A stretch of DNA of 64,000 nt from Thermoplasmatota archaeon (GCA_028279595.1 JANQNK010000003.1:160001-224000); one strand, 5' to 3'. Shown: positions 27,700 through 38,205, counted from the first letter of the stretch. Program-made: numbers and translations. Notes: generated by a model from the letters alone, not told the origin.

Positions 27700-27858
27700 G
27701 AGCCACCCAAAGCGGACATGTGTAAAAAGGGTATCCCGAAGCCGAACGAACTGATAGCAGGAGCACTGGGACCGGGCGCTTAAGACCACGTTGACCTCCA
27801 TGAATAACGTCCGGGCCAAGTGCTCCCTCATCCGGTTATGAAAATTGATAATTGGAGA

Positions 27859-27886
27859 CCACCCCCGGGCCCATCCCCGGGGGTGG
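27859..27886 (-). terminator. GC hairpin just outside the distal att; probable original 3' element of tRNA-Trp
   Basis: CCACCCCCGGG-loop-CCCGGGGGTGG directly abutting the att repeat. Confidence 0.55.
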
Positions 27887-27887
27887 A

Positions 27888-27905
27888 TGGTGGGAGCACT
27901 GGGAT
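27888..27905. repeat. att site (distal copy) TGGTGGGAGCACTGGGAT
   Basis: Identical to 36576-36593. Confidence 0.92.
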
Positions 27906-28004
27906 GAGAAGCCCACCGAGTACCTTGAGAATCTGAATCAATACGGCCAATTCATTCGAGAATTGTTCTCGAACCGTCCTCCGAGGATCGGTCAAACCGC
28001 TTAG
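27906..28004 (+). CDS. C-terminal half of an att-spanning ORF (complete only in the excised circle)
   Basis: 32 sense codons + TAG, in frame with WWEHWD encoded by the att core. Confidence 0.5.
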   Translation, partial: EKPTEYLENLNQYGQFIRELFSNRPPRIGQTA

Positions 28005-28020
28005 TTAGGGTTGATGTACA

Positions 28021-28149
28021 ATGGAATCGGAACTGAGTGATGAGGTTAACGAGAGGAAAGAACTAAAGAAGCACGCCGAGGACATCGAAAAGGCATTCGA
28101 CTACAATCCCGAATGGAACCACCTGAAAAAGAAGAAGAAGAAGAGGTGA
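28021..28149 (+). CDS. 42-aa protein with Lys-rich tail (not in ORF track)
   Basis: MESELSDEVNERKELKKHAEDIEKAFDYNPEWNHLKKKKKKR; its 3' end contains the GAGGTGA RBS of the next gene. Confidence 0.55.
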   Translation: MESELSDEVNERKELKKHAEDIEKAFDYNPEWNHLKKKKKKR

Positions 28150-28153
28150 ATTT

Positions 28154-28540
28154 ATGGAATCATCGGGGACTGAACTTCCTGAATTCTCTCATTTCGACGT
28201 TGCACCTCACGGCATACCCATTCGAGTTGACATTCCAAAGGACGGTGTCTATGTCGGCCGTGTTCTCGAATCGGAACTCCTTAATCCGAATAAGGAACCG
28301 GTGAACTCCGTCTTCTATCATGTGAAGATCCTCACGGTAGAGTGTGAGTGTGAACCTTCTCTTACCGTTTACGATATTCCTCGACTCCGCTGTCCAATAG
28401 ACGAGCAGGAAATCGTGTCCATTGGAAACGTCCTTGTCATCAATGTATTCCTCATGAGTCAACGGATGGTTTTGACTCCTTTATCCGAAATCAAGCAGTC
28501 ATTGAACATGATCAAAGAGGTCCAGGGGGCTTTGTTTTGA
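28154..28540 (+). CDS. Hypothetical element protein (beta-rich)
   Basis: GAGGTGA RBS; 4-nt overlap with next ORF. Confidence 0.65.
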   Translation: MESSGTELPEFSHFDVAPHGIPIRVDIPKDGVYVGRVLESELLNPNKEPVNSVFYHVKILTVECECEPSLTVYDIPRLRCPIDEQEIVSIGNVLVINVFLMSQRMVLTPLSEIKQSLNMIKEVQGALF

Positions 28541-28947
28541 AGTTGTCACCTGAGGAGACGATCACTCATACGCAAGCTGGCTCGTCACGTCTCCTTCAAG
28601 AGCGGAACGTCCCCATCGATACAGTCCTCCCCCCGGACCTCGTCCTCCTCACAGTGTTCGTTGAATGCAAGAACGGAATGGCCGTCAGAGACTATGATGT
28701 AGTAGTGACGGGTGAGGACGAAGTCTTCCGAGGTAGAACCGATAAGACCGGCCACATCGACTTCTATGTCCCTGACGGTCAAGAGATGATGATCGTCAAC
28801 GGGGATGACGTTTACGAACTGTACATGGAAGGCAACGGATATGTAACGCTTACGTCTCCGACGGACCTACCGCCGAAAAGACCACCTTCAGCGTCACTTC
28901 TCGAATCATTGCTATTGCCACAGGGTAGTCAACGTCCTTCCACTTAG
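28537..28947 (+). CDS. Hypothetical protein, possibly transthyretin/carboxypeptidase-regulatory-like beta fold
   Basis: LTVFVE..NG.AV....V.V......GRTDKTG...F.VPDG pattern. Confidence 0.5.
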   Translation: MKLSPEETITHTQAGSSRLLQERNVPIDTVLPPDLVLLTVFVECKNGMAVRDYDVVVTGEDEVFRGRTDKTGHIDFYVPDGQEMMIVNGDDVYELYMEGNGYVTLTSPTDLPPKRPPSASLLESLLLPQGSQRPST

Positions 28948-28960
28948 TGTCACGCTTTTC

Positions 28961-29028
28961 GCATGTCGTCCGGGGTATTGGTGATTCCGATCCTCTCTCA
29001 TCTTCTCCCGGGCCCCCGGACGGCATGT
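28961..29028 (+). terminator. 15-bp stem-loop closing the left-end operon
   Basis: GCATGTCGTCCGGGG...CCCCGGACGGCATGT with G-U pairs on the + strand. Confidence 0.5.
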
Positions 29029-29237
29029 ATTATAAATTCGATAAGTAATTCCAATATCCCAACTGATGAATGAGATAATACTATGACAAATGTAGAAGGA
29101 TACTATTCATCTATTTTGTAATTGGTTCAGTTACGATTATAATAATTCGTATTCCCAATTGAAGGATATGAATAGGATCCATATTTAGTTGTTCTAATGT
29201 AGATGATGAGTTTAACCGGGAATAAGAAAATTGGTAG

Positions 29238-29502
29238 AGATGTACCTCACCAGTAACTAACGACATCGAAGACGATGGTATACTTGAACATTATTTTGTA
29301 ACTGACAATGGTTACACATATGTTATTAAACCATATGGTGGATATATATGGAAGGTACGTACCAAGGGTAATTTCAGAGGTACTGGGTGCTTTGTTTTTT
29401 CTTGCTAGGGCATGGTAAGTTAATATTTGATAATCTGATGATGATAACAATAATTATACACCATTGATGCAAAGAAAGGTGTTATATTATATACATTAAA
29501 AC
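29238..29502 (+). pseudogene. Degraded FG-GAP/PQQ-type beta-propeller gene remnant
   Basis: Stop-interrupted fragments TSPVTNDIEDDGILEHYFVTDNGYTYVIKPYGGYIWK and LYTIDAKKGVILY. Confidence 0.4.
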
Positions 29503-29727
29503 AACTGTAAGAAACTGTTCTATTAACCAATATCCATTGGAATGAATAATTAAAAATAGAAGTATAATAAATTGGTTTCAATCCTATAGTACTGTTATGG
29601 TATTGTTTTATTATTAGAAGATGTCGCTATCTAATGTATATTTATGGTCATATACTATTTATACCTGTAAATTCGCTTCTATTTTGTTAATGAATTGAAG
29701 TGGTCAATGGTCTTACGACGTGATAGT

Positions 29728-29940
29728 ATGGGCTCTAGAAACCTAAAAAAGATTAGCGTGAAAAAGATCAAATTTTATTCTTATTTATTGTTATATTTGA
29801 TTGGATGGGTATTTTTTATCGTGGGTACAGTTCATTTAATATTGTGTTACGACCAAAAAGACTTTCGGACTCCATTTATTCTAATTATAGGTATAAATTT
29901 AATTTTCTTGAGTTTATACCATATTGACTCGGATTACTAG
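29728..29940 (+). CDS. Small 2-TM membrane protein
   Basis: Basic N-terminus followed by two hydrophobic helices. Confidence 0.45.
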   Translation: MGSRNLKKISVKKIKFYSYLLLYLIGWVFFIVGTVHLILCYDQKDFRTPFILIIGINLIFLSLYHIDSDY

Positions 29941-29946
29941 TGTTAA

Positions 29947-30268
29947 CCGATAAGGCTATCCAAGTATCGGGGCGTTGTTTTACACGTGTACCCGTCTCAC
30001 ACGTGTAACAACAACGTAGGCGGGAGATGAACGGTAACGTTCATCGAGGGGGCTATTCCCTATACTGTTTTTCAATTCTAACCGTAATAGGTATTGTCTC
30101 CGTGGATCTACCGTCGCACCCTCCCGTTAGGACGACAGAAGGAGGGGCGGTCTATTCTTTTCTACCTCGATCTTCTCTGTATTCTCTATGCCCCTCCCGG
30201 CGTCCGTGGGGAGGGGTGCCGACCGGGTCGCCGCAGGCGACCCCTATGAATCTAATTTAAGGTCGGCA
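29947..30268 (+). other. GC-rich, highly structured non-coding block (ncRNA or origin-like site)
   Basis: At least six stems inside otherwise AT-rich DNA; see findings. Confidence 0.55.
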
Positions 30269-30451
30269 GGTTGAGAGGAATTAGAATGTTTGAAAATGAA
30301 AACATTAGCTATTCCTATGAAATTCTTAAGAAAACGTCCGAAAAGGGGTTGTGAGAACTCTTTGGGGATTTTCATTTTATAAATACTTTGGATACAATGG
30401 TCCTAAAGTTATATGTAGTATACAAGTATATACACTAAAAGTAGTGGTAAA

Positions 30452-30742
30452 ATGGGCGATTACACGACCGTAAAGATCAGCAAGGATACTCTTCGATTAA
30501 TGGACCGCGTTCAATCCTTTTTCACCTATCGTTACGGTAAGAAATTGACCAAGGATCAAGTCCTTCGTACAGCTCTTCTCAAGTTCGATTATCGACTAGC
30601 TAGTAATCTTCATCAAACGGACCTCTCTTTCAACGAATATATCAAGATGCTCGAGGACGACGTCGGCTTGTCTTCGTCCGAAGGAGAATGGAAGACCTTC
30701 AAGGGCGTGAAAGTGTGGTGCGGTCCCGTCAATAAACGTTAA
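30452..30742 (+). CDS. Ribbon-helix-helix (CopG/antitoxin-like) DNA-binding protein
   Basis: YTTVKIS strand, then helices KDTLRLMDRVQ and TKDQVLRTALL; palindromes GTATAC and GTATATAC upstream. Confidence 0.65.
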   Translation: MGDYTTVKISKDTLRLMDRVQSFFTYRYGKKLTKDQVLRTALLKFDYRLASNLHQTDLSFNEYIKMLEDDVGLSSSEGEWKTFKGVKVWCGPVNKR

Positions 30743-30933
30743 TACTGTTTTACTGAAATTGGAGTTGGGGGTCCCCCGGTAATAACATGAGATCATTTCG
30801 GAGGTAAGTACCGGATCGGACACGGTCCCTTCGTAATTCACTGGGATTACAAATAAAAACCTACCACGTAAAAAAATGGTCAATGGAGATATAAGGGATG
30901 GTGGACTATTTGAAAATAGCGGAGTGGTGATAT

Positions 30934-32241
30934 ATGAAGGGAATAATCACTAAATGGATTGTTATTCAAATAATCGTTTTATTAATTATTAGTTCGGTGA
31001 CATATTTATACGGGAAAGAGTTGAAGAAAGAGGAAGAAGAAATAGTGGGTCGGTATAAAACTAGAAATCCTAACGATATTATATTCGATAAGACTATGAC
31101 ATATACATTATATCAATCAATGATTGGTGATTTACATATTGAGAATTCTCTGGATCAATTTCCGTTTACGCCAGAAAATGAAAATCAGACAAGATATGAT
31201 AACAATAATTATACAAATTCGTTTTATGCAGATTGTCAAGTAACAACAAATTCGTCACATGTAACAGATGAAAACTTAGTATGGATGTTTCCAGATCCAT
31301 GGGATGATGGAATGCGACCCATGGGGTCGGTTCTATTAACAACATATGTGAATATTACACATGATTGTCATCTTAATGATGCGTTATTCAGTTTCTGGTT
31401 AACAGCTCGGTGTGATGATGAAGAATATAAAAATAGCCAAATCGATTTTAAAATGAAATCTTCAATATTATTACCTGATAAATTGATGACAGATCGATTA
31501 AGAGATACTAGGGGTCGGATGATGTTTTCTCCAAATGAGACAATTCGTGTTGGAGAGCAGAAGCAAATTATCTTTGATTTTAATTTCATAAATCCTTCGA
31601 CATGGAGATTAAATACGGGTGATAAATTATTATTTCAGTTACAATATTGGATTATGAATCCAATAATATTAGATCCAATTCAAAACGTGTCAGAGGAAAA
31701 TGTACCGGTGAAATTATTTTTAATTTATGGTGGTGTTAATCCATCTTATTATAATATTTCATTAGAAAGGGGTATTGGATTAATTCATGAGATTGATTAT
31801 TCATTTAATGAACCAAACGAATATCGATATTGTTTTATTCCTCCAATTAATCATTCGATTAATAAGGTAACATTAGTTATTGAGGGATTAAATCTAGAAT
31901 ATATTTCTTTTTATTCCTCCTTGTCAATGAATAATGGTGATAGACTAAACAAAAGTTGGGTTTATATTTATTTACCATATAATTACCATCCCTGTTTAAC
32001 TCTTCGGTTTCAATTAGAAATGATTAATGGTGAAATTGGATCTTTTAAAACGTATCTTGATGGTGAACCCGAACAAAGGTATGTAAGGGAAGGTAAGGAG
32101 GGAATTCATGATGATGTTATGTTTTTGTTAAATATTGTGATTCCGGTATTTTCGTCTGTAATATTAATTCAAATAGCGTATAGATATCAAAAGAAAAAGG
32201 ATTCTCAGAAGTCAGTAAAGTCAGAAAACTTTCATGATTAA
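30934..32241 (+). CDS. AT-rich secreted/membrane-anchored hypothetical protein
   Basis: GGAGTGGTGA RBS, N-terminal hydrophobic segment, C-terminal TM plus basic tail. Confidence 0.7.
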   Translation: MKGIITKWIVIQIIVLLIISSVTYLYGKELKKEEEEIVGRYKTRNPNDIIFDKTMTYTLYQSMIGDLHIENSLDQFPFTPENENQTRYDNNNYTNSFYADCQVTTNSSHVTDENLVWMFPDPWDDGMRPMGSVLLTTYVNITHDCHLNDALFSFWLTARCDDEEYKNSQIDFKMKSSILLPDKLMTDRLRDTRGRMMFSPNETIRVGEQKQIIFDFNFINPSTWRLNTGDKLLFQLQYWIMNPIILDPIQNVSEENVPVKLFLIYGGVNPSYYNISLERGIGLIHEIDYSFNEPNEYRYCFIPPINHSINKVTLVIEGLNLEYISFYSSLSMNNGDRLNKSWVYIYLPYNYHPCLTLRFQLEMINGEIGSFKTYLDGEPEQRYVREGKEGIHDDVMFLLNIVIPVFSSVILIQIAYRYQKKKDSQKSVKSENFHD

Positions 32242-32411
32242 TGACGAGTGACGTAGCGATATTTATGTATTGTATATCCCGCTAATGTGTTTAATGTGAA
32301 GGAAAAACCTTCGCAAACTCCTACTCTAGCGTTAAAAAACGTAAGAAAAGGGGTCATCACAACAATTGGTGTTTGAGAAATTATTTATAGAATAAACGTA
32401 TAGTATAATCC

Positions 32412-32528
32412 ATGTCAGTGAAAATGGAATTTCAGTTTGAATTATCGAAGAATATCGCTGATATTGATCAAATATTAATGAATATTGAAGCAAGTGATGA
32501 TGAATTATTCGATTTACTGTATTTATAG
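32412..32528 (+). CDS. Possible 38-aa acidic peptide (not in ORF track)
   Basis: MSVKMEFQFELSKNIADIDQILMNIEASDDELFDLLYL, ends 18 nt before the next gene. Confidence 0.3.
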   Translation: MSVKMEFQFELSKNIADIDQILMNIEASDDELFDLLYL

Positions 32529-32546
32529 GTAAATGACGGTGTATTA

Positions 32547-33116
32547 ATGGCTCATAAAAGAGGTAAGGGAAAGAAGAAAGGTGGGAAGATTGAACCATTT
32601 CCTGAAGCATTAAAACGAGTTGAGGTATTAGCTCGAAGACTTAATCGAAAGGTTGAACGTGCCGTAGCAATACAGACTACTCCTGAAGAGGAAAAGGAAT
32701 TCCATTCAATACTTGTTGAACATGGAAAATTTGCAATACCATTTCGTTGTGAAGGTGAAGTGGTTATTTGTTTCATGCCTATTGGTATCGAAAAAGAAGT
32801 TAAAGAAAAATTTAAAGGAGTACCGTATGAAAAGCGGAGACGGTTATATTTTCACTTATTACGAGATCTACAATTGAGTAACAGAGTTGGATATACAATA
32901 AAACCTCTTGGGATTAAGTTGATTGATCAAATTGATGAAGTATATTTAGAATGTAGCAGTATTATTGAGGATACGAGTGGTGAATCTGCAAATAGACTTG
33001 CAGATATTATTCAAGAAATGGTCATTATGATGTTAAAGGCTGGGAAATATTTTGGTGGTGAAGAAGAAAAAAGTGATTCGAAACCGGATACTTTTACGGT
33101 AATGTATCATCAATAA
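32547..33116 (+). CDS. Hypothetical protein, possibly DUF2299-like
   Basis: 189 aa; 'KRRRLYFHLLRDL' central helix; 15 nt from the next gene. Confidence 0.55.
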   Translation: MAHKRGKGKKKGGKIEPFPEALKRVEVLARRLNRKVERAVAIQTTPEEEKEFHSILVEHGKFAIPFRCEGEVVICFMPIGIEKEVKEKFKGVPYEKRRRLYFHLLRDLQLSNRVGYTIKPLGIKLIDQIDEVYLECSSIIEDTSGESANRLADIIQEMVIMMLKAGKYFGGEEEKSDSKPDTFTVMYHQ

Positions 33117-33131
33117 TAGGTTGAGGATAAG

Positions 33132-33908
33132 ATGGAAAAACGGTTTGTGGCATTTTTCGATGTGTTGGGTTTTTCCGATCAAATTCAGCGGACAAGTGCA
33201 AAAAATGTGATGAAAGAGTATTCGAAATTTATTCAGGACTTATCCAAATCGGAAGGTTCGGAACTTAATGCGTTTATTAGTTCAGATTCAATTATTGTAT
33301 ATACTGAGGATTTATCTGTTGAATCATTTAAATCTATAGTGGATTATTCGGGTAGGTTGTTTGTTAGAGCTTTTCGTAATCATTTTCCATTACGTGGTGC
33401 AATAGATGGTGGAGAATTCGAAATTAGTGATGATCGTCTAGTATATGTTGGTCGTGCATTAATTCGGGCATATAAAGCTGCTTCATCTCAAAAATTGTCA
33501 GGTGTGATTTTAACACCCAATTGTGAAATGGTCTTAGAATCATCGGAATATGCTGGAATTCTCGAAGGAATGGATCGATCATTGAAACTAATTCAAAGGT
33601 CAATACAGATAAAAACTTCTGGTGTCTCTGGTTCATCTGACCGTGAAGGAATTCGGTATTGTGTTAATTGGGTACATGTTTTACACAGTGGTCGAGGCAG
33701 TCGGAAGGAACAGATGACGAAAAAGGAATTTTACTCAAAATTTGTACCAAAACGTAAGGCTGATTTTATTTTTGAATTAGATGTTGAAGAAAAAATCGAA
33801 AATACATATGGATTTTACGATTATACATATAAAATATTATCTCAGACTCGGTTTTTACCTCGTGGTAAAAGGGAAATTTGGCGTAGAACTATCAAGAAAT
33901 CAAAATAG
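33132..33908 (+). CDS. Divergent class III nucleotidyl-cyclase-like protein
   Basis: FVAFFDVLGFS (first Asp), ISSDSII (second Asp), LRGAI..G, VG.ALI.AY. Confidence 0.65.
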   Translation: MEKRFVAFFDVLGFSDQIQRTSAKNVMKEYSKFIQDLSKSEGSELNAFISSDSIIVYTEDLSVESFKSIVDYSGRLFVRAFRNHFPLRGAIDGGEFEISDDRLVYVGRALIRAYKAASSQKLSGVILTPNCEMVLESSEYAGILEGMDRSLKLIQRSIQIKTSGVSGSSDREGIRYCVNWVHVLHSGRGSRKEQMTKKEFYSKFVPKRKADFIFELDVEEKIENTYGFYDYTYKILSQTRFLPRGKREIWRRTIKKSK

Positions 33909-34092
33909 ACTGTTTTCAATGATGTATAATTGTGGTTGTATGGAATTCAATGACGCATAACTATCGATGTGCGTCAAGATCGTTATGAATATGAGATGGG
34001 CTGATGTTTACATGTAGGTATCTGCGTTTGGTGAAATCCGAGAAAATTTTATGGATTAACGAAATTATGAATGTGAATGTGAATATGAGGCG

Positions 34093-34491
34093 TCATAATT
34101 CCAATTTTGCTTGCGGTGATAATGGATCAGGGAATGAGTTTAGAATGAATTGGTGGAGTTTGTATGATAAGAAAATCGTGTAACATGATGACACACCGAT
34201 TACAGGTAATGTAATATAAGGATTGGATGAGAATGAAATTGCGATTGTGTTTAATGTTATTATTATTACTCCAATTGGAAGTACGAGTAATACTTTTTTC
34301 AGTTCAGTTCGAACTGATGTTGCTACTGTGATGGCTTGAGGGGGTGTTGGTATAGATTCGAAATAGGGGCGTAGTAAATTCTTCCAATTATCTACGTATC
34401 TTACTAGACCTATGAATACTAAACCGATTAAAGCTGCTAATGATTGCGCAAATGTAGAAAGAATCCATATTGATTGTTCTTCGGTTACCAT
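34093..34491 (-). CDS. Small 3-TM membrane protein
   Basis: ILSTFAQSLAALIGLVFI plus two further hydrophobic helices. Confidence 0.65.
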   Translation of the reverse strand: MVTEEQSIWILSTFAQSLAALIGLVFIGLVRYVDNWKNLLRPYFESIPTPPQAITVATSVRTELKKVLLVLPIGVIIITLNTIAISFSSNPYITLPVIGVSSCYTIFLSYKLHQFILNSFPDPLSPQAKLEL

Positions 34492-34547
34492 GAATAATGA
34501 GTGGGTGACTAATGTAAAAAAGTTTGTAAAAAAATAGTCAATGCCGA

Positions 34548-35189
34548 TTATAAAAAGTTGATGTTATCATATTTGAATGTTTCAACCCAATCCGGAAAAT
34601 TTTCAAAACATTGGTGCAAATCAAAATGATAATCTTTGAAGATGTCAGAGTGAGTTTCGGGTAGTGGTAATATATTACGCATTTCAAAGACAAATAAATC
34701 TAGAGGGTAAATGTCGGTTGGGAATAAAAATCCAGGTCCTGTATTGGGTATGAAATTTCCCGCGGGATATCGTGGAATTTCATAAAAGGGGTTAAATCTG
34801 TGGCAAATCGTGCTGATTCGTGAAGAATGAAGAAATGGATAATTTCGATTCTTATCGAGTAATCTACACTGGTTGAGTAATTCCTCAAGATCGTGTATTC
34901 TATTCGGAATCTCATTATGATTTGCGTATTTAATGAATGATTTTAGGTATAATTCAATACATTGTTGAGCTTCAAAAAAACTGTAGGGATAAATGTGGTG
35001 ATAGAACAGGATTCGGGATAAGAAATAATGAAGGTCTGCTGAAGAAATGAAAATGGTGTAACTCATGTTTTTAAGTTTGGTGTCGAAATCAGGATCTTTA
35101 ATACGTTTCGATATGTTAACAAATTCTTTATTTTTTAAAGTTGTTAGTTCGTCTACGTACATCTTTACATCATCTAATAGTGATTTCAT
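34548..35189 (-). CDS. HEPN-domain protein
   Basis: F.AQQCIELYLKS...HDLEELL...Y...RYP pattern. Confidence 0.8.
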   Translation of the reverse strand: MKSLLDDVKMYVDELTTLKNKEFVNISKRIKDPDFDTKLKNMSYTIFISSADLHYFLSRILFYHHIYPYSFFEAQQCIELYLKSFIKYANHNEIPNRIHDLEELLNQCRLLDKNRNYPFLHSSRISTICHRFNPFYEIPRYPAGNFIPNTGPGFLFPTDIYPLDLFVFEMRNILPLPETHSDIFKDYHFDLHQCFENFPDWVETFKYDNINFL

Positions 35190-35283
35190 TATTCATCGGT
35201 ATAATGGAGTAACATTGTATAAAAATGTGTAATAAAAATGGTTAATGTGCACTATATATGTGGAGATATGTGGTGAATTGTGA

Positions 35284-35454
35284 CTAGGGGGGTAGTGGTT
35301 TGTAGCGGTCTTCAAGGATATTTAGATAATATCTTGTTGCCTCTTTGATGATATCTGCTCTGTTGTTGTAACCAGCATCTGGATAGTCTGAAAGGAAGTT
35401 GTCAATTCGGTTAAGTAGGTTGTTTGGTAAACTAACAGAAGTATGTCGGGGCAT
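35284..35454 (-). CDS. 56-aa CopG/RHH regulator divergent from the integrase (not in ORF track)
   Basis: MPRHTSVSLPNNLLNRIDNFL...GYNNRADIIKEATRYYL, a canonical RHH pattern. Confidence 0.8.
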   Translation of the reverse strand: MPRHTSVSLPNNLLNRIDNFLSDYPDAGYNNRADIIKEATRYYLNILEDRYKPLPP

Positions 35455-35554
35455 GTCTCAAAATGGGTCTAAGAACTATATAAAACATGTAAATATTTAA
35501 ATGGAAATATGGCTGTAGATATATTTATATATGCATATTTGTATTGTGGTGTAG

Positions 35555-36538
35555 ATGCCCACCGATGTGGAGGTCGTGAAAACATCTGAAATTTCCGTGT
35601 TAGAGCGCTGGATACAGGAGATGCGAGCTCGGAACGTAGGCGATTATACAATTAAGCGATATCGTGCGGTTATCGAGCCATCACTTTCCTTCGCCTTGGA
35701 TGAGGGTTATCCTGACCCTATTGATTGGGATATCATTCAAGTTGGATCAATTCTTGATGGTATAGGTCGCAACTCCTGGAAGATCCGTGTGATGAAGCTG
35801 TTCTTAAAGTGGGTCGGGAACGACGTCCTTGTGAAGAACAGGATACTTCATCCGAAGCATCAACATCTTGGTCGATGGCTAAATCAGAACGATTGTCAAA
35901 AGCTTGTTACTCTTGCCCAAACCCCACTTGAACGAGTCGTCATCCACTTTATGATGGAGTTGGGACTACGACGAACTGATCTCTTACGTCTACGTGTGTT
36001 AGATATCGATTTCAGTTGCTCCCGCGTTAACGTACGAGGTAAAGGCTTTCATGACGGCAAGCTACGTGTTCTCCCATTCCATCCTTGTTCACAAGAGGTA
36101 ATCCGGTCATATCTCGAATACCGCGAATACGTTTTCCAAGTTGCACGTCAACGAAGTATTACTCAACCCGAGGATCCTGAAAATCTCCTCGTATACGAAA
36201 GAGGCGGAGAAGTCATAGGATACAAGAGCACCGCCATCGATAATCTCATTCAACGACTAGCGTCACGTCTAGGATTTCATTTCAGTTCTCACGATCTTCG
36301 GAGAACCTTCGGTCGCAACCTTTACTATGCGACAAATCGTGATATCGCAGTAGTTTCTTACGCTCTCGGTCATAGTGATATCCGGACCACGATGAAGTAC
36401 CTGGGTCTAGGATATGATGACCTTCAAAAAGGCATGGTAGACATGGCGAAGATGTGGGAATCGCAACCACATATTGCCGCCGAAGTGGTACTAAAACGGC
36501 GAAATGGAGGACCTAGCAATGAACCCAATTCAGGCTGA
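35555..36538 (+). CDS. int: Tyrosine recombinase/integrase (intact, not split by att)
   Basis: GLRRTDL (R), VRGKG (K), HDLRRT, LGHSD, TMKY catalytic residues. Confidence 0.93.
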   Translation: MPTDVEVVKTSEISVLERWIQEMRARNVGDYTIKRYRAVIEPSLSFALDEGYPDPIDWDIIQVGSILDGIGRNSWKIRVMKLFLKWVGNDVLVKNRILHPKHQHLGRWLNQNDCQKLVTLAQTPLERVVIHFMMELGLRRTDLLRLRVLDIDFSCSRVNVRGKGFHDGKLRVLPFHPCSQEVIRSYLEYREYVFQVARQRSITQPEDPENLLVYERGGEVIGYKSTAIDNLIQRLASRLGFHFSSHDLRRTFGRNLYYATNRDIAVVSYALGHSDIRTTMKYLGLGYDDLQKGMVDMAKMWESQPHIAAEVVLKRRNGGPSNEPNSG

Positions 36539-36593
36539 AACAACTGAAAAACCCCGCAAAAGCGGGGAAAACGACTGGTGGGAGCACTGGGAT
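36519..36593 (+). CDS. N-terminal half of the att-spanning ORF
   Basis: GGAGG at 36506-36510, 8 nt before ATG 36519; reads in frame through the att core. Confidence 0.5.
36547..36567 (-). terminator. Element-supplied terminator for tRNA-Trp
   Basis: CCCCGC-TTTT-GCGGGG followed by TTTTT on the minus strand. Confidence 0.65.
36576..36593. repeat. att site (tRNA-proximal copy)
   Basis: 3' 18 nt of tRNA-Trp including CCA. Confidence 0.92.
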
Positions 36594-36613
36594 TCGAACC
36601 CAGATCAGCGGGT

Positions 36614-36709
36614 TTCGCCTATCAGGCAAAGTGGCTTTGGGGTCGTTGCTCCAGTTAGTCATCACGACATCAGCAAACCCGTTGCAACTCATTTCCCCAA
36701 TGCGGGTAA
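36614..36709 (-). ncRNA. tRNA-Trp intron-encoded box C/D guide RNA
   Basis: CTGA and GTGATGA boxes; guides CGGGTTT and TAACTGGAGC complementary to the exon2 and anticodon junctions. Confidence 0.8.
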
Positions 36710-36799
36710 CTGGAGCCCGCGAGGATGCCAGGTTACCCCATGCTCCCACATGCTCGAGAGCATCCTCCGGGTCCCGTCGGAGCGGTCGGTCCACTGGGT

Positions 36800-36907
36800 T
36801 CAAGCCTTGCGCTGACGCAGCGCCTTCTGCCGGCGCCGCATGCGCTTCTTGCGCCATTTCCAGCGCATGTTGCCCTTCTTCTTCCAGCTTCTCGAGCCTC
36901 TCTTCAT
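36800..36907 (-). CDS. rpl41e: Ribosomal protein L41e (eL41/eS32) (not in ORF track)
   Basis: MKRGSRSWKKKGNMRWKWRKKRMRRRQKALRQRKA; GGAGAGTGG RBS. Confidence 0.85.
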   Translation of the reverse strand: MKRGSRSWKKKGNMRWKWRKKRMRRRQKALRQRKA

Positions 36908-37047
36908 GAGCCACTCTCCGTTGACTGCGCTGGAATAACTGGTTCTCCTATTTAAAGGTTGATAGGTTGGTTCAGTCTCTCAAAAGTGTGTTGGTATGTA
37001 CCTTTCAATGTGGGAACGTGTATATATCCAAAATCACATTCCGTGGT

Positions 37048-38205
37048 ATGAAGATATGGGTGGCCACCTTAGTTTTCATATTAGTGCTCAGTGGATATGG
37101 GGCGCGAGCATCTTTACCGGTTCAACAGCTTGAAGTCAGTAATGTGTATAGGACTGCAAATCCTGATGTATTCAATGATACGATCGTCTGGGAAAGAGAT
37201 GATCCTTGGCATGACCGCATAATTCAATCATACGATATTCGGTCTAACACCAAATCTATCGTAACCAATCAAACCAGATTCTATTCGAACAATCTTAGCT
37301 GTGACCTTAGAGGAAAAGCACGTAATCCCACTGCACTCGAAGATGCGATCATATGGCAGGATGAAATATTCTATGATTGGTCACAGACGATCGATGGGAT
37401 TGTATATTTGAATCTTACTAATGGACAGCTGTCATTAGTATCAAATGCAACGGAATATTCCGTCAATCCAGACGCTTATGGAGACATCATCGCATGGGAA
37501 TCAGGCTGGGATCAGAAGAATATCACATATCATCATATCTCAACTAACGAAACCATTAAAATCGATAGAAAATACAACCAAATCACACCGCAGGTGTATC
37601 AGAATTATCTTGTCTGGAATGAATATGATGGGGTCCCCTCTGTCGGTTGGACTAGGATCTACGTGAAGAATTTAATCACAAGCGAAATCGTCCAAGTAGG
37701 TGGAGATGGTGTAAAGTCCCCCTCCATTTATGGTGACAAAATTGTCTACGAGCATTGGGTATTTCCAGATGATGAAGGTGATGAACTCATTCGAGACATA
37801 TACATGCATAATCTAACAAGTGGAATTACAATCCCCATCTGCACCGATCCTGGTGATCAATTGATCCCTAAGATCTATGAGGATCAAATTGTTTGGATTG
37901 ACAATAATGATGGCGGATACCATATCGTATCTCACAATTTACAAACCGATGAAACTCTTAAGGTATGTACAGATCCCGAATTCGATCGGTACCATGTCGA
38001 CATTCATGGAAATGTAGTCGTATGGAGCGGTCATAATGAGGACGAATCAAGGTTGTTTTATTCGAATCTTTCATGGGAGCCGATTCCCGATCCGCGAATA
38101 ATCGAAACTATCGATAATGGATCCATAACCTCTGAAGTGATCATTGGATCATTGATTGTGCTGGGTATCATCGGACTTGTAGGTTTATGGAAGCAAAAGT
38201 CCTGA
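37048..38205 (+). CDS. Secreted beta-propeller (TolB-like repeat) protein, membrane anchored
   Basis: Repeated P.I.GD.IVW units, DIYMHNL, C-terminal TM; lower GC. Confidence 0.8.
   Translation: MKIWVATLVFILVLSGYGARASLPVQQLEVSNVYRTANPDVFNDTIVWERDDPWHDRIIQSYDIRSNTKSIVTNQTRFYSNNLSCDLRGKARNPTALEDAIIWQDEIFYDWSQTIDGIVYLNLTNGQLSLVSNATEYSVNPDAYGDIIAWESGWDQKNITYHHISTNETIKIDRKYNQITPQVYQNYLVWNEYDGVPSVGWTRIYVKNLITSEIVQVGGDGVKSPSIYGDKIVYEHWVFPDDEGDELIRDIYMHNLTSGITIPICTDPGDQLIPKIYEDQIVWIDNNDGGYHIVSHNLQTDETLKVCTDPEFDRYHVDIHGNVVVWSGHNEDESRLFYSNLSWEPIPDPRIIETIDNGSITSEVIIGSLIVLGIIGLVGLWKQKS

Follow-up and report, generated by a model that had tools for sequence, protein, structure and literature searches.

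The stretch of DNA analyzed here (the window; 64,000 nucleotides, JANQNK010000003.1:160001-224000 of assembly GCA_028279595.1) comes from a rare Thermoplasmatota archaeon and carries an 8.7-kb mobile element, here called e1, which lies within a tRNA-Trp gene. Its ends are formed by an exact 18-bp direct repeat, TGGTGGGAGCACTGGGAT, at positions 27888 to 27905 and 36576 to 36593; these are the two copies of this sequence in the whole 2.29-Mb, 21-contig assembly (a reversed-pattern control gave 0). The right copy of this attachment (att) core lies inside the tRNA gene and corresponds to the 3' end of tRNA-Trp(CCA), with the encoded CCA included, while the left copy marks the junction between element and host that is distal to the integrase gene, int. 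The latter (positions 35555 to 36538, plus strand) codes for an intact tyrosine integrase of 327 amino acids (aa) (Pfam PF00589; E = 6.2e-19; residues 108 to 283). Within the last codons of int, a second open reading frame (ORF), orfX, begins in the +1 frame relative to int. Its 5' part (positions 36506 to 36575, plus strand) consists of a Shine-Dalgarno (SD) sequence, GGAGG (positions 36506 to 36510), an ATG 8 nt further on (position 36519) whose overlap with int comprises the last 20 nt of the latter, and 19 codons before the core. The core adds six codons to this frame, which in the integrated state goes on antisense into tRNA-Trp (ORF at positions 36504 to 36815). Once the two cores are joined in silico, the frame is uninterrupted through the 3' part of orfX at the left end of the element (positions 27906 to 28004, plus strand; 32 codons and the stop TAG at 28002 to 28004), giving 57 codons from ATG 36519; this 3' part codes for a predicted helix and a conserved tail ending in GQTA. 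Behind it, on the same strand, follow orf42 (positions 28021 to 28149), which starts 16 nt past the orfX stop; orf128 (positions 28154 to 28540), after a gap of 4 nt; orf136 (positions 28537 to 28947; TTG start), which overlaps the orf128 stop by 4 nt; and a closing hairpin (positions 28961 to 29028; -35.1 kcal/mol; z = -3.86) with a T4 ahead of it at about position 28955. An earlier note on this stretch had described the GGAGG-led ATG, the antisense run into the tRNA, the 57-codon fusion, and the tightly packed ORFs with their hairpin, and the sequence agrees with it on each of these. We consider it likely, at roughly three chances in four, that e1 contains a separate, non-integrase gene that is split at att, and that orfX has its conserved body at the far end and its start at the int end, so that it would be whole only in the excised circle.

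By itself, an open frame across att is weak evidence, because frames of this length are often open by chance: a random position and frame remains open for at least 32 codons in 51% of trials genome-wide and in 25% inside the element. The finding owes its significance to the comparison of paralogous elements. Two further integrases of the same subfamily are encoded in this genome, in elements that we call e2 and e3, which brings the copies of the family that were found to three, all in this genome. Element e2 (contig C7; 14.5 kb) is inserted at a tRNA-Pro(TGG) gene, convergent as in e1, and is bounded by an exact 18-bp repeat that is unrelated to the e1 core. Joining its ends yields a 53-codon ORF through the core that begins at an SD-led ATG (GAGGTGA), overlaps the int 3' end in the +1 frame, and has the same final residues, GQTA; the distance from its stop to the next gene is 17 nt, compared with 16 nt in e1. 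The after-core peptides of e1 and e2 (31 to 32 residues) align with a local score of 47, against 16.7 +/- 3.6 for shuffled sequences (z about 8), and the score was unequalled in 20,000 shuffles. When the two are aligned from the stop codon, the orfX frame scores +42 and the other five frames score between -40 and +1. Identities at the first, second, and third codon positions number 13, 19, and 9 of 31, respectively, and the codons for the terminal GQTA (GGT CAA ACC GCT in one element and GGA CAG ACA GCA in the other) differ in the third base in four cases out of four. The greatest conservation at the second position, the random level at the third, and the third-base changes in GQTA point to selection on the protein rather than on the DNA. 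The core-encoded residues are wholly different between the elements, as one would expect if the tRNA dictates this linker. Thus, the assertion of the earlier note that the integrase is intact and a separate gene is split at att gains from e2 an element with the same layout and a homologous, protein-constrained C terminus.

The start of the frame provides a second line of evidence. In e1, e2, and e3 alike, the frame goes back to an SD-led ATG that lies in the +1 frame of int and overlaps its last codons. In this genome, the probability that the open in-frame codons upstream of a fixed point, up to a limit of 30, include an SD-led ATG is 0.022 per element, which gives about 5e-4 for two elements with unrelated cores. 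None of the parts of orfX matches a family in Pfam. Structure prediction for the core-plus-C-terminal fragment (38 aa), modeled from the two-sequence alignment, gave a helix at residues 9 to 28 (predicted local distance difference test score of 83 to 87) followed by a non-helical tail, of which the terminal GQTA could be a recognition motif. A predicted complex of Int with this 38-residue fragment scored 0.06, which gives no verdict and counts as evidence neither way.

The expression signals at the two ends of the element were compared with those typical of the genome. SD words are enriched at positions -16 to -3 before long ORFs (AGGTG, 9.8-fold; GGTGA, 7-fold; GGAGG, 5-fold), and a TTTAAATA-type box, preceded by A-rich sequence, is most frequent 29 to 32 nt before the ATG of long ORFs, a spacing that implies many leaderless mRNAs. 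The best match in e1 to a TATA/B recognition element matrix trained on this genome is the TATA box of int (positions 35524 to 35531, plus strand; 16.7 bits), which lies at the leaderless-type distance of 31 nt before the int ATG; the int gene of e2 has two boxes, at -57 and -32, the same pair as in e1. On the plus strand between 27800 and 29030, this matrix detects no site of at least 6 bits, which extends the report in the earlier note that no TATA box is apparent in positions 27906 to 28020. The first sites of at least 10 bits upstream on the plus strand are separated from this region by over 1.5 kb, which includes a gene of the opposite strand, and a 6.1-bit site is found at position 27721. 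Within 800 nt past the far core of e2 there is likewise no site of at least 10 bits, the best far-side site (8.4 bits) belonging to the host flank, some 70 nt ahead of the core. The after-core segment of e1 (positions 27906 to 28004) includes no in-frame ATG or GTG, and the sole upstream start before a stop in the integrated state is TTG 27852, which is part of a host hairpin with an 11-bp GC stem and is without an SD. Taken as a pair, the after-core parts of e1 and e2 lack an SD-led start of their own and a TATA box of the host type, and no oligo-T separates them from the next genes. In neither joined form does a T5 run occur between int and the end of the left-end module; terminator-like signals appear past the module, namely, the T4 with the -35 kcal/mol hairpin after orf136 in e1 and a T5 right after the first downstream gene in e2.

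Several results weigh against a gene assembled across att. Besides the frequency of open frames given above, the homologous C terminus is found in only two independent elements, which both belong to one metagenome-assembled genome (MAG). Element e3 (contig C14:112264-117597, locus L068; 5.3 kb) is inserted at a tRNA-Arg(TCG) gene, listed by ARAGORN on the locus and not in the whole-genome run, and is bounded by a 14-bp repeat of the tRNA 3' end. Its int carries a TAA; the int-side SD, the ATG, and an e2-like N terminus are kept, and the frame is open through the core. Its far end is unrelated to those of e1 and e2, and tblastx identifies e3 as a deletion derivative of an e2-like element from which most of the interior has been lost. 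Elements e2 and e3 have an identical block of 18 nt ahead of the core; it codes for the Int tail and the orfX N terminus and has T-runs on the tRNA strand. The conservation before the core is not assignable to orfX alone, because the Int tail, the hairpin, and the T-runs share that DNA, and the case for coding therefore depends on the after-core part and the relationship of the frames. The integrated junction of e2 creates an ATG that could start a 37-residue product. The promoter matrix, derived from 85 sites, is a simple one, and weak or atypical promoters may escape it. No contig of the assembly represents an attP or an empty site.

Relatives outside this genome add to these points. Word-based searching with orfX in its joined, 62-residue form recovered no homologue, a profile of the e1 and e2 after-core peptides run against 401 genomes of the phylum returned noise alone (E of at least 0.01 per genome), and scans of viral, genome, and metagenome contigs recovered no close relatives of Int. 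The best protein matches of Int (38 to 42% identity) are from Methanomassiliicoccales or Thermoplasmata MAGs, on contigs that are truncated or not tRNA linked. The order and class are represented by three genomes, of which this one alone has the integrase, and proteins 31 to 38% identical to Int, often encoded convergently with a tRNA, were found in about 6% of 400 genomes sampled from the phylum. Both ends were located in three of these distant relatives (G214, G135, and G313), and five more loci have no repeat in the available sequence. In G214 (tRNA-Pro; 26 kb), an SD-led ORF of 56 codons runs through the core and the next gene overlaps it by ATGA, which repeats the split design and speaks in its favor. 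In G135 (tRNA-Gln), a TAG lies inside the core, and in G313 (tRNA-Ala) it is the integrase ORF itself that reads through the core; both of these speak against the split-gene reading. The continuity of the frame through att, which the earlier note had proposed to follow in related elements, thus holds for the close paralogues e1 and e2 and is broken by a stop in one distant relative (G135). The after-core peptides of the three have no significant similarity to orfX, and that between G214 and G135 is marginal (p about 0.02). From these sequences, the split design appears to recur among distant relatives, with no support for an ancestral status.

Four other explanations have to be set against these observations. 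The after-core ORF might be a real small gene that integrated copies express, using a start on or immediately outside the left junction (TTG 27852 in e1 and the junction ATG in e2), in which case its continuity in the circle would be incidental. A potential start does exist in both integrated forms, and open frames are common in this genome; but both starts are without an SD, the TTG of e1 sits inside the 11-bp GC hairpin of the host, and the host gene upstream is on the opposite strand. The flank of e1 has no TATA-like site of at least 6 bits, and in that of e2 the one candidate is the weak site of 8.4 bits some 70 nt before the junction ATG. Moreover, the host flanks of e1 and e2 are unrelated, yet the SD-ATG layout on the int side is common to all three elements. 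We regard a junction start as unlikely. The elements could also be immobile, with orfX a relic whose split has no present regulatory role. The decay of e3, with its TAA in int and its internal deletion relative to e2, would fit such a view, as would the lack of a circular form in the assembly and the lack of recognizable replication or transfer genes in e1. Against it stand the perfect 18-bp repeats of e1 and e2, their intact Int proteins with all catalytic positions, and the in-frame halves of orfX, kept despite an Int identity of 44%; a relic is, in our judgment, quite unlikely.

The remaining two explanations dispense with orfX as a gene in its own right. According to one, there is no gene across att and the frame is open by chance, as it would be in 25 to 51% of trials, while the similarity in the flanking DNA reflects arm sites of the integrase, a replacement terminator for the tRNA, and the region where the next gene starts. 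The hairpin and T5 before the core on the tRNA strand, the identical 18-nt pre-core block of e2 and e3, and the DNA word AGCCAG, kept before the core by distant relatives whatever the frame, are all what this explanation would lead one to expect. The after-core pattern of e1 and e2 is of the protein type (13/19/9 identities by codon position, third-base changes in GQTA, and null results in the five other frames), unlike that of DNA signals, and makes an accidental frame very unlikely. According to the other, the after-core helix is a state-dependent tail of Int, comparable to that of Myxococcus phage Mx8 and reached by a +1 ribosomal frameshift within the overlap, or orfX is a recently separated Int tail, the downstream genes being passengers. 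It is true that orfX overlaps int in the +1 frame in all three elements, that the integrase ORF runs into or through the core in G313 and in another distant relative, G229, and that the swapped Int C terminus of Mx8 alters activity (PMC6070905). Each element, however, provides orfX with an SD and ATG of its own, no frameshift signal was recognized, and the G313 tail has no significant similarity to orfX, all of which leaves an Int tail highly improbable.

We therefore return to a separate gene assembled across attP and to the mechanism that it would entail. The int end would supply the promoter (TATA at -31), the ribosome-binding site, the ATG, and the variable N-terminal stretch of OrfX; the tRNA-derived core would code for a six-residue linker, and the far end for the conserved part of ~32 residues. 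In the circle, int transcripts would cross attP, because no oligo-T run lies between, and ribosomes would then start orfX at the overlapping SD-ATG, with the left-end genes being co-expressed. Thus, int, orfX, orf42, orf128, and orf136 would form a single transcription unit of the circle, which integration would cut. Thereafter, the int transcript would run antisense into tRNA-Trp, orfX would be reduced to a meaningless hybrid, and the left-end module would fall silent. Judged from the layout of the sequence, this full model, including the excision-dependent expression of the left-end module, is in our estimate moderately probable.

Related arrangements are known from other systems. In mycobacteriophage BPs, attP lies inside the repressor gene 33, and the prophage form of the protein is 33 residues shorter (PMC4557955). 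Like gene 33, orfX in e1 and e2 is a predicted non-integrase gene beside int that contains attP and whose state would be set by recombination. The two differ in what is separated: the promoter-proximal part of the BPs gene codes for a DNA-binding repressor that is functional, and what the protein loses is a degradation tag, whereas in orfX the conserved part is cut from its start and the promoter-proximal piece comprises the variable ~19 residues and the linker. OrfX is without a DNA-binding domain (no Pfam family and a single-helix model) and so does not qualify as a repressor; in addition, the host here is an archaeon, and promoterless genes lie behind the split gene. The transfer genes of Tn916 are transcribed through the joined ends alone (Celli and Trieu-Cuot 1998, as cited in PMC5812530), and ICEclc gains the promoter Pcirc on excision (PMC5812530). 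As proposed here for e1, circularization in these elements sets a promoter at one end before genes at the other, and expression thereby indicates that the element is excised. Their fusions are purely transcriptional, whereas in e1 a coding sequence would also be assembled across att, as far as can be read from the sequence; furthermore, transcription flows into int in ICEclc and would flow from int outward in e1.

Coding sequences that are altered by integration are also on record for integrases. In the "suicidal" archaeal integrases of the SSV type, att lies within int (PMC7253208, PMC8371274), and in the IntP/IntX system of Myxococcus phage Mx8 integration rewrites the C terminus of Int (PMC6070905). 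They resemble orfX in that att falls in one of the coding sequences of the recombination module, so that integration rewrites a protein; the split gene there is the integrase, while here it would be a separate overlapping ORF next to an intact int. Both schemes were considered for e1 to e3 and set aside: the int stop precedes the core in all three (by 37 nt in e1, 7 nt in e2, and 13 nt in e3), which is at odds with an SSV-type integrase, and attP is not within the int 3' end, as an Mx8-type swap would have it. A review of archaeal tyrosine recombinases recognizes two designs, with int either split (type I) or intact (type II), and no known directionality factor (PMC8371274). With a full int ORF between the att copies and att outside int, e1 falls in type II (pNOB8-like) and is an ordinary tRNA-integrating element that keeps its integrase intact. 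The contrast that the earlier note drew with SSV and pTN3 therefore stands insofar as int is not split; its novelty is diminished by the bacterial precedents for an attP in a non-integrase gene (BPs) and for circularization-dependent transcription (Tn916 and ICEclc). What would be new is the combination, in an archaeon, of an intact int with a distinct small gene that overlaps it, is assembled across attP, and leads a promoterless module; the closest analogues are bacterial. A different effect of the joined ends is seen in phage lambda, where sib, an RNA processing site across attP, lowers int expression. It resembles the present case in that sequence across attP acts on the int-operon RNA when the ends are joined, and differs in being neither a coding sequence nor an extension of the operon.

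The control of direction in the recombination of archaeal integrative elements is poorly understood. The characterized archaeal integrases all work without an excisionase-type factor (PMC8371274), and the only known helpers are Orf2 and Orf3 of SNJ2, whose Int excises alone and needs these two co-transcribed proteins for integration (PMC5861418). SNJ2 also has an archaeal Int whose gene abuts the tRNA-derived core with its 3' end and small, co-transcribed, overlapping accessory genes. Its helper genes are upstream of int and unsplit, whereas in e1 the gene upstream of int is a divergent one for a ribbon-helix-helix (RHH) protein, so that e1 has no SNJ2-type module; nor did tblastn of Int against a phage and archaeal-virus collection give a match at E <= 1e-8 that would indicate a sequence relationship to SNJ2. 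OrfX or the left-end module may serve the episomal phase, as an integration helper or a partner of the integrase that is absent when Int only excises. A helper made by the episome alone would be sensible, because the SNJ2 Int excises alone but needs Orf2 and Orf3 to integrate; such a role for OrfX, based on this analogy, is speculative. In its most developed form, the idea would make OrfX a state sensor built into the recombination site: the full protein and the left-end genes would be made from the episome alone and would work with Int, for instance toward integration or against re-excision, whereas the integrated copy would make Int alone and could only excise; some relatives would carry this tail as a fusion to Int. 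We advance this proposal tentatively and consider it doubtful. If it is true, directionality control would be encoded by the topology of attP, and orfX would be the first archaeal non-integrase gene assembled by site-specific recombination. A conserved small gene that exists only in the excised form, is translationally coupled to int, and leads a promoterless module would, if real, give such elements a simple sense of whether they are free or inserted. Annotation practice is affected as well: a gene spanning attP escapes notice in an integrated copy, and the ends of integrated elements should accordingly be joined in silico ahead of gene calling.

The integrases of e1 and e2 are 44% identical, with R139/R140, K163, H246, R249, H273, and Y282 invariant; from general knowledge of the family, we take the R, K, H-x-x-R, H/W, and Y positions to be catalytic. 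A divergent gene for an RHH (CopG-like) protein (positions 35284 to 35454, minus strand; weak match to Pfam RHH_1) stands beside int in all three elements and is 56% identical to its e2 counterpart. In two distant relatives that target tRNA-Ala (L008 of G229:C29 and L047/L048 of G313:C1), the int ORF ends within the tRNA or just past the core. Going by their sequences, circularization would provide these integrases with another and longer tail, which would amount to an Mx8-like swap of the C terminus. The int-tRNA spacers of Methanomassiliicoccales-type relatives contain the word AGCCAG(T)A 5 to 25 nt before the core, whatever the tRNA or frame (loci L012, L018-L020, L028-L031, L053, L054, L057, L061, and L064), and this word is probably an integrase-binding site.

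The target of e1, tRNA-Trp(CCA) (positions 36576 to 36747, minus strand), was detected by ARAGORN with its intron option. Because of its long intron, it was overlooked by default ARAGORN and by the gathering thresholds of Rfam, which gave sub-threshold tRNA and box C/D (sR40) matches. The intron (positions 36641 to 36696, minus strand) has weak matches to box C/D small RNAs (Rfam sR40, 18.3 bits, E = 0.31; sR3), in agreement with the intron-encoded guide known from euryarchaeal tRNA-Trp. The native 3' flank of the tRNA is now at the left end, where a host hairpin (positions 27859 to 27886, minus strand; 11-bp stem; -27.3 kcal/mol) adjoins the left core on the host side, with T-rich sequence next to it on the minus strand. 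Between the int stop and the right core, there is a 6-bp GC hairpin (positions 36552 to 36567; -12.7/-12.9 kcal/mol on either strand; z about -3) with a T5 after it on the tRNA strand. It is probably a replacement terminator for tRNA-Trp supplied by the element, and an Rfam isrK-like match at this position reflects merely the hairpin plus U-run. Just past the tRNA, a 412-aa ORF (positions 36967 to 38205) lies in a stretch of 40% GC, against 57% in the host; its product has a signal-anchor-like N terminus and a hydrophobic C-terminal segment, and it may be a remnant of another insertion at tRNA-Trp.

In the left-end module, orf42, orf128, and orf136 match no family in Pfam or PHROG, and orf42 has no e2 counterpart. 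The orf128 product is a small protein of little more than one PKD/CARDB-like beta-sandwich repeat unit: in phmmer searches, its residues 42 to 104 match a 4,124-aa metagenomic protein sixteen times, at repeats that belong to Pfam PKD_4, and it also matches a CARDB protein. It is weakly but collinearly similar to the product of the first gene after orfX in e2 (E = 0.019), and the orf136 product is 33% identical over 69 aa to a 282-aa e2 protein. The proteins of e2 match no Pfam family and gave one weak P-loop match. The GC content is 46% in int, 46 to 53% in the left-end module, and 27 to 35% in the cargo between them, against 57.5% in the genome; that both ends differ from the cargo is as expected of one core module cut by att. 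The cargo (positions 29000 to 35500) looks like a separately acquired module and includes a HEPN-domain gene (positions 34548 to 35189, minus strand; Pfam E = 4e-11), a gene for a 258-aa protein that matches phrog_23933, and several orphans, with no recognizable replication or transfer genes in e1 by Pfam and PHROG searches. A block of ~100 to 200 nt is conserved as DNA in all three elements (window positions 30150 to 30300; L067:5250-5440, minus strand, and L068:3030-3210, minus strand). It is probably noncoding, because tblastx matches it in several frames and on both strands. With a long invariant run and a stem that shows compensatory changes (GGGTCGC/GCGACCC in e1 and GGGGCCC/GGGCCCC in e2 and e3), it probably represents either a cis-acting site, for example an origin, or a small RNA.

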